Of a stretch of 48,014 bases of DNA, positions 35,661 to 40,572 are shown piece by piece. Below the pieces are notes generated by a model. It ran no database searches, was not told the DNA's origin, and worked only from the letters and a program-made list of their open reading frames with translations. Position numbers and translations under genes: made by a program. The DNA is from Myxococcales bacterium (lineage in GTDB: Bacteria; Myxococcota_A; UBA9042): contig JBBISH010000037.1 in assembly GCA_037441385.1 (NCBI GenBank), positions 1 to 48,014 on the forward strand, written 5' to 3'. Every line of letters begins with the position of its first letter. The stretch's first letter is position 1.

Positions 35661-37052
35661 TCACGCGGTCTCCCCACGCCGCCAGCCCGCCACCGCCAGC
35701 CCACTGAGGCCAAACCGCACCGCGTTCCCTTCGTGCAGCGCGGCCAGCTCGCCAAGCGCCACCTGCACGAACCGCGGACGATCGGCCGCGGCCACCGAGT
35801 CCGGCGTGTACTCCACGACTTGCGCCTCGCTGGCCGGCTGTCCGCTGGCCACCACCGCGCGCACCACCTCGCCCAGTTGCCGGCGGTACTTCAGGCGCAC
35901 CGGCTCGGGCGGCACCAACTGCTGCTCCACGGCGGCGTAGTGCTGGCAACTGCGCTCGTACGCCCACACGAACACATCTCGCATCAGGTCGACCTTGCCC
36001 AGCTCGTAAATGCCCAAGATCGCATCGGTATACGCGGCTTCGGGCAGATCCAGGAACGCCAGCGGCACCAAATTGTGACGAATCAGCGGCACATTGGCGG
36101 CCAGGCGCGACACCCGCTTGTTGACGTCTTCAAACGGCTGCAGGTACGGCAGGTGAACCAGGACGAACAGCGCCTGCTCAAACGGGTCGGCGATGGCGTT
36201 CGCGGTCGCACACAGCAAGGCAAACACCTGCTCCAGGCGCTGCGGCAACGCCAGGGGCAAGTAGACGCTGCCGCCGATGCCCACCGCCCGTCGCCGCAGA
36301 CGCCCACAGGCGGCCGGATCGGCCAACAGGCCGTCGGACAGAAGTGCATGAAGATCCAACAGGGTAGCCGGGCCCAGGTCCAGCCCGGCGGCTCGGTCCA
36401 CCAGGTACTCGATGGCCGCCTTGTGGTTCAAGATCATCTGCGCTTCCACGGCGTCGTGGCCGGCGGCAGTCTCGCCAAAGGCAATCAGGCGCTCGGTGTC
36501 CAGGCGCGTGTAGGTGTTGCCCTCCAGCCGGCTCGACGCCCACGCCAAGTCGATTAGCAATCGGCTCAGGATCTCTTTGGCAAACGTGCCGGCGACATCG
36601 GCCGCGTGACCGGCGCGCCCCAGCGAGGCCAGCGATTGCCGAAGCGACTCAGGCAGATACCAAGTGTGTCCCGGCCGATACGCCTCGAGTAGCTCCAGGC
36701 GATAGCTGACCGGCTCGCGCAACGCCTGCGGACGGCGGACAGCGGCGACGATGGCCACGGACTCGGGCGAGAGCGGAACGATTCCCGCATACTCGGGGAC
36801 TTGCTCGGCACTGCGGCTGGCAGGAACGGGGGCCGGCGGCAACTGGCCAAGCCCATAGCGGACCGCGCGCCCCGAACCGCCCGCCAGCACCTGCCCGGAC
36901 TGTGCCATGGCCGCCAAGTGCCGCTGCAAAGTCCGCTTCGGCACAGGGGAAGGCAGGTGGGACAGCAGCTCGGACACGCCAAGCCCGGCTGGGTGATTCG
37001 CAAGCGCGGTCAAAATGCTCGCGTCGATCGACTCGGAGTGGAAGGTGGCCAT
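35661..37052 (-). CDS. Fic-family protein with N-terminal winged HTH
   Basis: SSRLEGN, MILNHK, variant Fic motif YLQPFEDVNKRVSR; N-terminal PKRTLQRHL...RAVRY. Confidence 0.9.
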   Translation of the reverse strand: MATFHSESIDASILTALANHPAGLGVSELLSHLPSPVPKRTLQRHLAAMAQSGQVLAGGSGRAVRYGLGQLPPAPVPASRSAEQVPEYAGIVPLSPESVAIVAAVRRPQALREPVSYRLELLEAYRPGHTWYLPESLRQSLASLGRAGHAADVAGTFAKEILSRLLIDLAWASSRLEGNTYTRLDTERLIAFGETAAGHDAVEAQMILNHKAAIEYLVDRAAGLDLGPATLLDLHALLSDGLLADPAACGRLRRRAVGIGGSVYLPLALPQRLEQVFALLCATANAIADPFEQALFVLVHLPYLQPFEDVNKRVSRLAANVPLIRHNLVPLAFLDLPEAAYTDAILGIYELGKVDLMRDVFVWAYERSCQHYAAVEQQLVPPEPVRLKYRRQLGEVVRAVVASGQPASEAQVVEYTPDSVAAADRPRFVQVALGELAALHEGNAVRFGLSGLAVAGWRRGETA

Positions 37053-37069
37053 CGGCAGACCGCCGCGTT

Positions 37070-37157
37070 TCGCGCCAAGCTGGTGGCGCGCAAATCGAGT
37101 ATCGCGCCAGTTGGAGTGGCGCGCAAGCGACGAATCGCGCCAAGGAAGTGGCGCGCA
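37070..37157. promoter_or_regulatory. Three tandem palindromes upstream of fic (putative operators)
   Basis: TCGCGCCA-N5/6-GTGGCGCGCA at 37070, 37102 and 37135. Confidence 0.65.
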
Positions 37158-37293
37158 TTGGGCGCTGGTGGTGCGGAAGGGTCTGGGGTGGGCGGATGGG
37201 GCGCCGGGAATTCAGGAGCCCGGGAATGATCAGGAAGTCTTGGTGTTACTTGCGTCCCGGGGCCGTTTTGGGATCCTACTCGTGGTCGCGTAG

Positions 37294-37401
37294 GACTTCT
37301 TGCACCGCCAGCTCACCCAGCGGCGGTACCTGCACGGTCACACGCCGCCCATCATTCACCGCGACATCAACCCGTTCAACCTGAGGCGGCGCCGCCGTTG
37401 A
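37294..37401 (+). pseudogene. Ser/Thr protein kinase catalytic-loop remnant
   Basis: Reads YLHGHTPPIIHRDINPFNL between stop codons, with no other kinase subdomains. Confidence 0.55.
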
Positions 37402-37668
37402 CGGGGACGTGACTACTTCTTTGTCAAGCTCCCCGTCGTCGAATGACGACATCTCGGCCGGCCGGACACGCTGGTTGCCGGCTGCGCGGGTCGGCTGCCG
37501 ACACGTCAGCCCACCCGCGCTTCCGCGACCTGAGTCTCCGTCGGTCTCTTCCGCGTCAAGTGGCTTCCCCGTGTAGATCCATGAATTCGCACACTTCGTG
37601 CCGAATTCACGTCTCTCCACGTGGGTCCACTTGACCCGTTGGCACGCTTCCCTGCGCCCAGGCCCGGA

Positions 37669-38928
37669 CTACGCCGCCTCGTCGAGTTCGTTTGCCTCCT
37701 CGACCGTGCTCAGCACGCCTTGCGCCCACACCACACCTTTGCTCTGCAACGCCTTGATATACCGGGTCTCGTCGTACGCCTCGCCAGTGCGCAGCAAGGC
37801 CGCCAGTAGGCGCAGCAGCGACCGCGCGATGATCCTCAGTGCTGTTCCATGGTTCTTGCCGTGTTGCCTCAGGTATGCGTACTGCGCTTTGGCCCATTTC
37901 AGGCGCATCATCGCCTGCATCGCCAGCAGATAGCTCGTGCGGCGGCCGCGCACTGGTGCCGACTTGCGCATCCGGACCACGTTGAGGCTCTTGCCGCTCT
38001 GGCGCTTGACGGGACTGGCGCCGCACCACACGGCCAGGTCGTCGCGGTCGCCTTGCGCCAAGTTCACCGCGCCCAGTGCCAGCAGGCTGATCGCCAGGGT
38101 AACGCCAATCCCGGGCGTGCTGCGCAACGTCGTGCTTTCGGTATACCGCTCGGCCAGCTTGTCCATGGCGCTGTCGATATCAGCTTGCTGCTTGCGCAAT
38201 TGCCGTAACTCGCCCACCAGCCGGCGTACACGAGCGGCGTGTGCCGCGCGAACTTCGCTCGCCATCGCCACCCACGGCTCGGCCAACGCCGACACAATCG
38301 CCGCCCGACGCTTGCTGTGGAACCGGCAGCGCCCGAGCAGCTCCTCGCGGTCGTGCTCGCTGAGCGCGGCTCCGTCCTGCCAGGTCGGCACCGCCTCCAC
38401 CACCGCCAGAGCCGCCTGCGTCCACATCTGCGATAGCGACCGCTCCAGCGCTGGATGCACCTTGACCAACTCCTCGCGCAACTGATTGGTCGCACGCTGA
38501 ATCTTGCTCAGCACGTCGTCGTGATCGTCCAGAAGAACGCCCGCTGTCTCGCGCAGCGCCTCGGGCGGCTCCCAGGCCTCGATGCGGTGGTGGCTGCTGT
38601 CCAGCATCCGCAATAGCGTCTCGGCGTCGCGCTCGTCGTCCTTGGCGCCACTCGATGTCAGCGATTCGGCAAACCTTCGGGCTTGCTTGGCGTCCTGCAC
38701 GTAGACCACGGCCTCACGCGCATGCAGGGCGGCCGCCAGGCCCGCATCGCCGGCCTCGATGCTCACCTCTACCCCGACGTCATTGCCACCGAGCTGCTGA
38801 GCTGCAGCCATCAACTCGTCGACACCCTCAAGGCTACGTACAACCTTGAGCTTCCTGTGCTTTTCGCCACACCGTAACCGCGCGACCGACTCCCGCCGCG
38901 CCCAATCAATACCCATCTGGACAAGCAT
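37669..38928 (-). CDS. IS110-family DEDD recombinase/transposase
   Basis: GIDWA, SIEAG, KDDERDA (DEDD), STPGIG, SPVKRQSGK (catalytic Ser); GGAGG RBS. Confidence 0.93.
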   Translation of the reverse strand: MLVQMGIDWARRESVARLRCGEKHRKLKVVRSLEGVDELMAAAQQLGGNDVGVEVSIEAGDAGLAAALHAREAVVYVQDAKQARRFAESLTSSGAKDDERDAETLLRMLDSSHHRIEAWEPPEALRETAGVLLDDHDDVLSKIQRATNQLREELVKVHPALERSLSQMWTQAALAVVEAVPTWQDGAALSEHDREELLGRCRFHSKRRAAIVSALAEPWVAMASEVRAAHAARVRRLVGELRQLRKQQADIDSAMDKLAERYTESTTLRSTPGIGVTLAISLLALGAVNLAQGDRDDLAVWCGASPVKRQSGKSLNVVRMRKSAPVRGRRTSYLLAMQAMMRLKWAKAQYAYLRQHGKNHGTALRIIARSLLRLLAALLRTGEAYDETRYIKALQSKGVVWAQGVLSTVEEANELDEAA

Positions 38929-38946
38929 GACCACCTCCGGCAAAGT

Positions 38947-39180
38947 GGCCGTGCGTCGCTGCGGGCGCGCGGGGCTTCCCTATGATACCAGTGCGTTACA
39001 CCTGCCGCTTACAGGGAGTGCTGGTACGTGACTACGGCCCTCGGCCCGCAGCGGCGCGTCGGCCCGCATGTCCCCCCCTGGCACTCGAAGTGCTGGGGCA
39101 AATACGGCGTGACCGACGCGTCGCACGGCCGACCCAAGACCTACCGCAAACTACCCATTTGCGCACGCCTCGAGCCTGAA
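38947..39180 (-). ncRNA. Putative IS110 bridge RNA
   Basis: Outer stem 38947-38955/39122-39130 encloses two stem-internal-loop-stem domains. Confidence 0.65.
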
Positions 39181-39325
39181 GCAGTCATAGGGGGGCGCTG
39201 CGCGGCGGACCTTTGGCCGTGTGGGCATTTTGCTGGAAATTCAGTGAGAAATTGGCGTTGACGGGGGTCAATCGCGGGCGTAGGCTCAGGGCTCCGAGGC
39301 CGGAAGGCCCGGTTTGGCGGGGGCA

Positions 39326-39670
39326 ATGGCGACGTTGCGGCGGTCGGTGGCGCGGGTGGACAGGCTTGCGGATCCTTCGCGAACTCTTTTACGAGGGCTG
39401 GCGGCTACGACAGCAACGCTCGTGATTGCTGTCTGCGGCTGCACACGTGAGTGCGGCGACTCTGATCACGAGCACCGGAGTTGCACGGTGGTTAACGGGC
39501 AGGCTGGCATCAAGTTCTGCAACGATGAATGGGGTTGGATAGTAAGGATGTGTGAGTCCGGTGAAACTTGTAGTGCTGTAACCATAAACGACATTGAGAC
39601 TTTTGAGTGCAAGGTCGGCGGCCCCGACGCGGTGGGAGGTGATGCAGACGCTACGGACACCGGCAAGTGA
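39326..39670 (+). CDS. Small Cys-rich putative lipoprotein (lower GC)
   Basis: Hydrophobic segment ending AVCGC, six further Cys, Asp-rich tail; start uncertain. Confidence 0.5.
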   Translation: MATLRRSVARVDRLADPSRTLLRGLAATTATLVIAVCGCTRECGDSDHEHRSCTVVNGQAGIKFCNDEWGWIVRMCESGETCSAVTINDIETFECKVGGPDAVGGDADATDTGK

Positions 39671-39981
39671 CGAAATGGGCATCCGTCTGGCACACCACCT
39701 GCGGCACCAAGACCGGCAATTCCGCCGACCGACTTGGCAATCCCCGTCGAAACGCAGCGAGCGAGGACCAACCATCGATTTATCTTCAGGCGCTCTTGGG
39801 CGCGGTCGCGGTGCTCGCGTTGGCGCGGGCGGTCGCGGCGGCTGCAGCGAGGCCAAATCGACACTTCAAACAGCACTAACCAAGAATGTCAGTGTCTTGC
39901 CAGCGCGTGCCTGGACCGGGCGCTTGAGAGCCCGCTACCCTGAGCGCCGCGCACCCGCTAGCGTGCCCCTTGGAGCCCCGC

Positions 39982-40572
39982 ATGTCGCCGCGAAATCTGA
40001 GTATTGCCGCGAGCTTTGTCGCCGGACCGTGTCTTGCCGCCGTGCTGGGCCTTGCCGCTGCCTGTTCGAGCGGGACCACTGCCAGCCCTGCCGGCGCCGA
40101 CACCACCGCGAGCACCGACACGGCTGGTACCGACACCACCGCGAGCACCGACACCACTGGCAGCGACGCTGCGAGCACCGACGCTGCGCCTGGCGACGGC
40201 ACTGCATCGCAAGACAGCGCCGACACTACAAAAACCCCGGCCTTCGCAGAGGTGACGGCGATCTTCGAGCAACGCTGCGTCACTTGCCACCGCGCCGATG
40301 CCTTGGGCCTGCCCGGCTACGCCAAGCTGCCGCTGACGGCCGACGTCGCCCACGCCAAGCTTGTGGGCCAGCCCGCCAACGAGACCTGCGGCGGCACGCT
40401 GGTCGTGCCCGGAAAGTCGGCACAGAGCTACCTGTACCTCAAAGTTTCGCAGCAAACGCCCTGCGAAGGTGGCCATATGCCGGCAAAGTTTGAGATGTTG
40501 CCGGCCCCGCCGCTCACCGCCGAGCAGCTGGCGACGATTGCGGCGTGGATCGACGACGGCGCCAAGCCGTAG
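39982..40572 (+). CDS. Monoheme c-type cytochrome lipoprotein
   Basis: LAAAC lipobox, DTTAST linker repeats, CVTCH, VVPG...SYLYLKV, HMP, WIDDGA. Confidence 0.85.
   Translation: MSPRNLSIAASFVAGPCLAAVLGLAAACSSGTTASPAGADTTASTDTAGTDTTASTDTTGSDAASTDAAPGDGTASQDSADTTKTPAFAEVTAIFEQRCVTCHRADALGLPGYAKLPLTADVAHAKLVGQPANETCGGTLVVPGKSAQSYLYLKVSQQTPCEGGHMPAKFEMLPAPPLTAEQLATIAAWIDDGAKP

Follow-up and report, generated by a model that had tools for sequence, protein, structure and literature searches.

Among the known guide RNAs of the IS110 family is that of IS621 of Escherichia coli, whose bridge RNA is set out in published passages of Durrant et al. 2024 (PMC11208160) and Hiraizumi et al. 2024 (PMC11208158). 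According to these passages the RNA lies in the left end of IS621, upstream of a DEDD/Ser recombinase, and its first internal loop reads the target and its second the donor. We find the same arrangement in a stretch of 48,014 nucleotides of a Myxococcales bacterium (assembly GCA_037441385.1, contig JBBISH010000037.1, positions 1 to 48,014), hereafter the window. Its minus strand very probably carries, from 39191 down to 37407, an IS110-group insertion sequence of 1785 bp (counting one copy of its CC core), with a bridge RNA encoded in its 262-nt left end and a gene for a DEDD/Ser recombinase. We assign it to the known bridge-RNA IS110 group as a divergent member; it is not a new kind of system. 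Blastn and tblastn searches of the 221 contigs of its own genome found no copy beyond this one, and 36 other genomes of the family yielded no copy of the element DNA, their matches covering only the flanking host repeat or short segments. A preliminary description of this DNA had proposed to fix the ends by comparing other copies; relatives served in their place, and they uphold its left end but not its right end, which it had put at the transposase stop codon.

The relatives come from several searches. Among 8000 candidate proteins scored, 26 matched the transposase at E <=1e-10; they include a small clade with P0002 at 70% identity and P0003 to P0008 at 59-41%, the remainder being at most 32% identical. 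We examined the DNA of loci L039 (70% protein identity), L040 and L041 (33-35%), and L062, L063 and L064 (about 33%). The first three were recovered from a metagenome scan that yielded 22 loci, only L039 being close, and the last three from 401 genomes of the phylum, of which 16, the own genome included, matched at E <=1e-30. A scan of genome contigs with the single protein gave no close relatives, and an alignment-based scan gave 7 loci at 24-26% identity. The best plasmid-borne relatives listed have 24.5-28.6% identity, and all 80 plasmid records matched fall below 60%. One in-frame TGA is present in each of the transposase matches of L063, L066 and L069, which may be broken copies or contain sequencing errors. 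In the left flank of L039 (L039:1-152) a 68-nt unit is repeated in tandem, in two copies and a fraction, and the element lies in the third, diverged unit.

The structure of the leader is the first line of evidence. In the minimum-energy fold of the 272-nt leader (39200-38929), a 5' hairpin is followed by a 9-bp outer stem, GGCCGTGCG at 39130-39122 paired with CGCACGGCC at 38955-38947 on the minus strand, which encloses two hairpins with internal loops. The fold energy is -140.2 kcal/mol (z -3.1), and 2 of 200 shuffles fold as well. Folded individually, the leaders of the window and of L039 take the same architecture, with identical stems and with differences mainly in the loops of the first hairpin. 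A two-sequence RNAalifold consensus, which pairs CCCUGU with AUAGGG in the donor hairpin, was set aside in favour of these individual folds and of an eight-sequence model. The covariance model built from the window and L039 found the structure immediately before the transposase start in six further elements (L063, L040, L041, L064, L062 and L071, E 2.6e-17 to 2.7e-9), and more weakly in L070. In the alignment of eight sequences 95% of the cells are standard pairs, and 31 of the 44 pairs have changed on both sides. No column shuffle out of 500 reached any of five measures of covariation, and sliding the partners by 1-3 columns left only 32-44% pairing. This anatomy and covariation, like the matches of guides to element ends given below, are direct observations on the aligned loci. 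They uphold the outer stem, the two internal-loop hairpins and the bridge-RNA reading of the preliminary description, which had itself suggested a covariance analysis of homologous leaders as a check. Judged by sequence and predicted fold, the leader is bridge-RNA-like, its target loop being loop 1 and its donor loop being loop 2.

The donor loop ties the leader RNA to the left end of the element. Its 3' strand consists of TCATA (38985-38981), GG (38980-38979) and the handshake bases GA (38978-38977), and TCATAGGG at 38985-38978 is complementary in 8 of 8 positions to CCCTATGA at 39192-39185, as had been pointed out before. When the window is aligned with L039 by blastn, 1650 columns are 72% identical and the match starts exactly at 39191 (CCTATGAC), the sequence to the left of this start being unrelated. 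All six elements with enough upstream sequence have CCTATGA 170-230 nt upstream of the TCATAGG of their donor loop; the elements resemble one another after this string and differ before it. Reverse-complemented, the 3' strand of the donor loop gives two bases, then CC, then TATGA, and the base beside CC is the last flank base in all six elements (G in four, C in the window and T in L039); both bases before CC match the flank in three of the six. Because this flank-adjacent base varies across the six elements and the RNA changes with it, the left-end match exceeds what chance would give, and comparison of the aligned loci confirms the left end at CC-TATGA. The CC core proposed in the preliminary description also holds, with CC at 39191-39190 and at 37406-37405.

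The right end is in our judgment highly likely to be at 37407, where GTAGTCACGT is followed by CC about 260 bases past the stop codon, and not at the stop codon itself. The 5' strand of the donor loop is GTAGTCACGT (39035-39026). In each of the five relatives with downstream sequence, the 5' strand of the relative's own donor loop recurs as a copy beyond the stop codon: 10 nt at +8 in L064, 8 nt at +21 in L062, 9 nt at +36 in L063, 7 nt at +49 in L041 and 8 nt at +225 in L040. The core that follows this copy is CC, except for TC in L063, and among the four relatives for which both junctions are known the two cores are CC/CC in three and CC/TC in L063. A -35-like box stands 5-7 nt before the donor-guide match in all six elements, the window included (TTGACA in four, TTGACT in one, TGGACG in one). 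The window has the same layout at +253 from its stop: TTGACA at 37427-37422, 5 nt, GTAGTCACGT at 37416-37407 and CC at 37406-37405. The preliminary description was right in principle to look for a -35 box in the right end, although the box is this TTGACA and not the TTGACG at 37559-37554 that it had named. In 2000 mononucleotide shuffles of the 1.73 kb downstream, any 10-mer of the loop strand turned up in only 8, and some 7-mer of the 11-nt loop strand in 549; a search of the whole 48-kb window with at most one mismatch found two 10-nt matches where 1.24 were expected, which is not significant alone. The runs of C at both junctions leave the crossover point of the window copy uncertain by a few bases.

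The same comparison sets the register of the target loop. When the target-loop 3' strand of a relative is reverse-complemented, it spells the last two bases of the donor, the core and 5 nt of the right flank. The 5-nt right guide matches the element's own flank at 5 of 5 positions in all five relatives; cross-comparisons among them give 0-2 matches (20 comparisons), and up to 3 when the guides of the window and L039 and the window junction are added. The core predicted by the guide is the observed right core in six of six elements, including the TC of L063, and the handshake pair agrees with the donor end (GT) in four of the six, being half right in the other two. Left guides match the last 7 flank bases at 6 positions in L063 and L064, 5 in L041, 2 in the window and 3 in each of L062 and L039, the L039 count rising to 6 if the guide is shifted by one base; cross-comparisons give 0-4. 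The reverse complement of the L039 target-loop 3' strand also matches 10 nt (TGTCCGGCTC) of the left flank of that locus.

In the window, the 5' strand of the target loop carries the left guide ATTTGCC (39103-39097) and CC (39096-39095), and the 3' strand the right guide GGGGG (39078-39074), the core guide GG (39073-39072) and the handshake AC (39071-39070). The right guide had previously been read as GCCAGG, which the register shared with five relatives replaces by GGGGG, GG and AC; the target proposed with it, AGCGCCC-CC-GGGCC, falls together with a right end at the stop codon. The remark that loop 1 fits the flanks only in part was correct, the fit being 3 of 5 on the right and 2 of 7 on the left. 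The predicted site is ATTTGCC-CC-CCCCC and the observed one GCGCCCC-CC-CCGTC: the central CC-CC-CC fits but the outer positions do not, and both sites consist of G followed by 8-9 C. The register may have slipped within the C-run, or the length of the run may have changed later. Because the target loop fits the flanks of the window copy so poorly, this copy, as far as the guides can be read from sequence, most likely entered a C-run that is not its cognate site, by near-cognate or half-match insertion. The abstracts of two 2026 preprints attribute to half-matched substrates many off-target insertions of IS621, and also the growth of natural elements by progressive additions. In the own genome, the predicted target has no exact occurrence, three with one mismatch, and 33 sites with up to two mismatches, from which no distinct family of targets emerged. 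Near-matches on contigs C113 (minus strand, 6275), C18 (plus strand, 38170) and C22 (plus strand, 40701) share a wider motif, roughly GA-ATTTGCCCCCCACC, which might be the natural repeated target of the element.

The flanking DNA also bears on the ends. To the left of the element, 39193-39380 is a 188-bp copy of a host repeat family of about 150-190 bp, with further copies, for example, at C50:3004-3156, C108:20107-20264 and C215:38-211, several of them at contig ends. The repeat in the window carries on the plus strand TTGACG (39258-39263), 17 nt and TAGGCT (39281-39286), within a conserved GTTGAC...17 nt...TAGGCT, together with an upstream near-palindrome, CTGGAAATTCAG. Copies lie just upstream of open reading frames (ORFs), several of which start with lipoprotein-like signal peptides, and in the window a plus-strand gene starts near 39314. 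From these features the repeat looks like a shared promoter or regulatory module; a promoter scan of it called no promoter. The homology of the other copies to the window stops 1-4 nt before the element, and removal of 37407-39191 brings GCGCCGCCT to 16 nt after GCGCAGCGCC. In the copies on C68, C102 and C20, GCGCCGCCT stands 15-16 nt after GCGCAGCGCC, and C108 has GTGCCGCCC; the frequency of the GCGCCGCCT motif in the genome is 4.8e-5 per position. The restored motif supports a simple insertion into one copy of the repeat, which would have occurred about 67 nt upstream of its -35 box. Global alignment of three candidate empty-site joins with the repeat copies gave sums of 45, 71 and 69 against a null of 65 +/- 18 and did not discriminate among them, and of the empty-site comparisons only the exact GCGCCGCCT motif at its fixed spacing is informative. 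The first repeat alignment had weakly hinted that an end at the stop codon would restore GGGCC, an idea that was dropped.

Several other readings of these observations have to be weighed. In the preliminary description the element ended at the stop codon (37666/37667), was 1527 bp long and had the joined ends GCGTAGT-CC-CTATGA, all of which we consider quite unlikely. The letters behind this proposal are real: CGTAGTC stands both at 39036-39030 and at 37673-37667, so that 7 nt of the donor-loop 5' strand recur at the stop, GTAGTCCGGG there, read in the relatives' register, agrees with the guide at 7 of 10 positions and has CC after it at 37662-37661, and most relatives have short right ends, at +8 to +49 from the stop. 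However, the homology with L039, whose left flank is unrelated, continues past the stop through 37560, where the query ended, and reaches at least 37508; there the L039 contig breaks off, its final 13 nt being identical to 37520-37508 of the window. L039 moreover has an identical donor loop, and its GTAGTC occurs only inside the RNA, with none at its stop. With the 7-mer in 549 of the 2000 shuffles, that is at chance level, these observations leave a right end at the stop codon unsupported, and its size and joined ends fall with it. At the stop there is also no TTGACA box at the right distance (TCGACG would give a spacer of 19 nt), and the flanks joined there do not restore the downstream motif of the host repeat. 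The motif might still be a relic or secondary end, of an element that grew by a hairpin module of about 250 nt and in which both ends may be usable. For this one can cite the partial donor-like site followed by CC, the right ends of window/L039 and of L040, which are long, unrelated in sequence and each provided with long hairpins, and the growth by progressive additions and half-match recombination reported for IS110 elements in the 2026 preprint abstracts; but L039 shares the extension without a trace of the site, the motif lies inside coding sequence and the match is at chance level, and we regard such a relic as unlikely.

A right end at the CT core of 37534-37533, offered in the preliminary description as an alternative, has next to no probability in our view. 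The -35-like TTGACG is indeed present upstream of it (37559-37554), yet the position falls within the stretch shared with L039, it lacks a donor-guide match, and CT disagrees with the CC of the left junction and with the core guides. It is also very improbable that the leader is only a structured 5' untranslated region, such as a translational regulator, with no guide function. The leader is known here from sequence and predicted fold, and Rfam, searched over 36500-40500 at E up to 1, gave no family match except an unrelated mir-275 at E 0.92, both of which would be compatible with such a region. Such a structure does not, however, predict loop letters that track the element's own ends and flanks, as they do here, with the right target matched 5/5 in five of five relatives and the core-adjacent base in six of six elements, and the cis-regulatory role alone is disfavoured for this reason; architecture and strand polarity also agree with IS621 as far as the published passages describe it. 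We retain a predicted guide RNA that would read a left end at 39191 and, very probably, a right end at 37407.

This choice of ends gives the element a right end of 262 nt. It folds at -135.6 kcal/mol (z -5.96), with none of 200 shuffles as good. The hairpin at 37638-37552 is kept in L039, where 5 of 40 predicted pairs in the shared stretch have changed on both sides, and a self-match marks a second palindrome at 37540-37463. L040 has a right end of similar length and unrelated sequence with one long hairpin (z -3.72), and the right ends of the remaining relatives measure 17-58 nt. No two-loop architecture was found in the right-end hairpins, and the covariance model from the window and L039 did not match them. 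They could be an accessory module, acting as a transcription insulator that shields the junction -35 box, as a second regulatory RNA, or being a captured former target, a suggestion that we hold to be doubtful. If the module were a captured target, it would document natural growth of an IS110 element, and the GTAGTC...CC at the stop codon would be the relic of an older end.

The protein agrees with the family assignment already made in the preliminary description. PF01548, the N-terminal DEDD RuvC-like domain, is matched at E 5.3e-14 (52.7 bits against a Pfam cut-off of 29), and PF02371, the C-terminal Transposase_20 domain, at E 1.7e-10 (41.6 bits against 21.3); matches to the transposases of IS621 and ISCro4 bear out the assignment as well. 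NCBIfam NF033542, the IS110 family RNA-guided transposase, is matched over residues 6-383 (profile positions 3-342 of 343) at E 9.5e-38. The start codon agrees with 7 homologues. The solved IS621 transposase is matched at E 5.6e-13, phmmer aligning only residues 231-390 well. We take the native numbers of the acidic catalytic residues of IS621 to be D11/E60/D102/D105. Residues D8, E58, D98, D101 and S311 align with the IS621 catalytic positions in chain 8wt6_A, and S241 of IS621 is named in the published passages (PMC11208160, PMC11208158). The four acidic residues D8, E58, D98 and D101 are invariant in all eight clade members, and alignment position 311 is Ser in six and Thr in two. The two with Thr, P0005 and P0006, read QQTGKG in place of RQSGKS, Thr replacing the serine aligned with the IS621 nucleophile, and P0005 is found on 11 contigs.

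The features of the locus are collected in the table. Further to the right, the sequence directly beyond the element (37284-37412) has weak matches in the genome, 85% over 46 nt on C17 and 85% over 41 nt on C215, which may belong to another dispersed repeat or a small gene family. An ORF of 114 aa (37276-37620) straddles the right end; it has no Pfam match, its last 42 residues have no NCBIfam match, and it was taken as spurious. Downstream of the element, a 463-aa ORF on the minus strand (35661-37052) has a Fic/DOC domain (PF02661, E 1.6e-8), and the roughly 75 nt just upstream of it (about 37066-37142) recur at 78-84% identity in G029 and G023, both genomes of the same genus.

Table. Positions in the window of the IS110-type element, its parts and the adjoining host repeat.
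Feature	Positions	Strand	Basis
Whole IS110-type element (predicted extent)	37407..39191	-	Left limit: start of L039 homology; right limit: junction rule of the relatives
Left core dinucleotide CC	39190..39191	-	Directly 5' of TATGA in 6/6 elements
Left-end start TATGAC: right-donor sequence, presumed -10 of the circle-junction promoter	39184..39189	-	TATGAC/TATGAG in 6/6 elements
5' stem-loop region of leader	39131..39183	-	Hairpin in minimum-energy fold
Bridge-RNA core: outer stem enclosing two hairpins	38947..39130	-	Folds, covariance-model matches, covariation counts
Target-binding hairpin	39055..39120	-	Register from relatives
Donor-binding hairpin	38957..39053	-	5' strand 10/10 with 37416-37407; 3' strand complementary to 39192-39185
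Transposase/recombinase gene, 419 aa	37669..38928 (ATG 38928, TAG 37671-37669)	-	Pfam, start codon, catalytic residues
CGTAGTC at stop codon, right end of the preliminary description, probably a chance match	37667..37673	-	L039 comparison, shuffles
Right end, 262 nt, with long hairpin 37638-37552 and palindrome 37540-37463	37407..37668	-	Fold z, L039 pairing, self-match
TTGACA, presumed -35 box of the junction promoter	37422..37427	-	-35-like hexamer before donor-guide match in 6/6 elements
Left-donor sequence GTAGTCACGT, last 10 nt of element	37407..37416	-	10/10 identity to donor-loop 5' strand
Right core dinucleotide CC	37405..37406	-	CC after GAYRT in 5/6 elements; TC in L063
Host repeat, element inserted in distal part	39193..39380	+	15 further own-genome matches; copies in 3 same-genus genomes

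A mechanism can be proposed by analogy with IS621, in which the element would be excised as a circle. The circle would bring TTGACA of the right end to 17 nt from TATGAC of the left end and so create a promoter only in the excised form. The distance from the -35-like box to TATGAC or TATGAG across the predicted junction is 17-18 nt in all six elements, and a promoter scan found no consensus promoter in the integrated state. A transcript from the junction promoter would include the bridge RNA together with the transposase. The donor loop would read the joined ends, its 5' strand representing the last 10 nt of the right end (GTAGTCACGT) and its 3' strand pairing with CC and TATGA. The target loop would present the left target and core on its 5' strand, pair through its 3' strand with the core and 5 nt of the right target, and match the last two donor bases (GT) with its two handshake bases. 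Strand exchange at the CC core would then leave CC on both sides of the element. Synthesis of the RNA, formation of the circle, use of the promoter and activity of the element are thus parts of a model, and would be expected here if the locus behaves as IS621 does.

A number of points weigh against our reading of the element and its ends. The element is present in a single copy, so its ends rest on relatives of 33-70% protein identity and not on a second copy, and the contig of L039, the only close relative, ends before its right end. The sequencing runs listed for this DNA, one and two more from the same study, all in the form of contigs and none of them RNA, showed neither a circle junction nor an empty site. 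The target loop of the window fits its own flanks at about chance level. The 5' strand of the donor loop covers the CC core incompletely, reading AC in the window, and the minimum-energy fold shows some pairing between the two strands of the target loop. The alignment used to count covariation was fitted to the structure of the model, which favours covariation. The -10 sequence at the junction, TATGAC, lacks the final T of the consensus. Finally, the NF033542 score of the transposase (130.2 bits) is below the curated cut-off of 140; this cut-off is a naming threshold and not a mechanistic feature, and the shortfall marks a divergent member of the family.

The case shows that the anatomy of a bridge RNA can be read from raw sequence, and that a 7-nt match between loop and end is too little to place an end: the right end shifted by 260 bp once relatives were compared. 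The CC core of the clade, its TATGAC and GAYRT ends, its 5-nt right guide and its outer closing stem together specify in full the guide code of a divergent bridge recombinase, which lends itself to tests of programmability. The window copy lies in a C-run that its target loop matches poorly, and is a candidate for a natural near-cognate or half-match insertion.

Elements of the IS1111 group carry their guide RNA in a long right end. The right end of our element is long as well, whereas its left end, which holds the guide RNA, is also long and that of the IS1111 group is short, as described in the passages of PMC11208160. The transposase of ISCro4 (PDB 9t56), a solved IS110-family recombinase, is matched at E 3.7e-12 over residues 231-398, and offers a distant comparison at the protein level only. 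IS621 provides a close parallel, and within the published passages on it we recognise further features of our element: in both loops the 5' strand runs in the sense of the left half's top strand; the right donor guide, the core guide and the handshake bases matching the target follow in the same order; the core dinucleotide occurs on both sides of the element; and a presumed -35 box in the right end could join a presumed -10 in the left end. As far as the same passages allow a contrast, our element differs from IS621 in its core, which is CC (YC) and not CT, in its TATGAC left and GAYRT right ends, in the outer stem of 8-9 bp that encloses both hairpins, in a right guide of 5 nt, in a donor-loop 5' strand that covers 9-10 nt of the right end and the core only partly, and in a right end that is 262 nt long instead of short.

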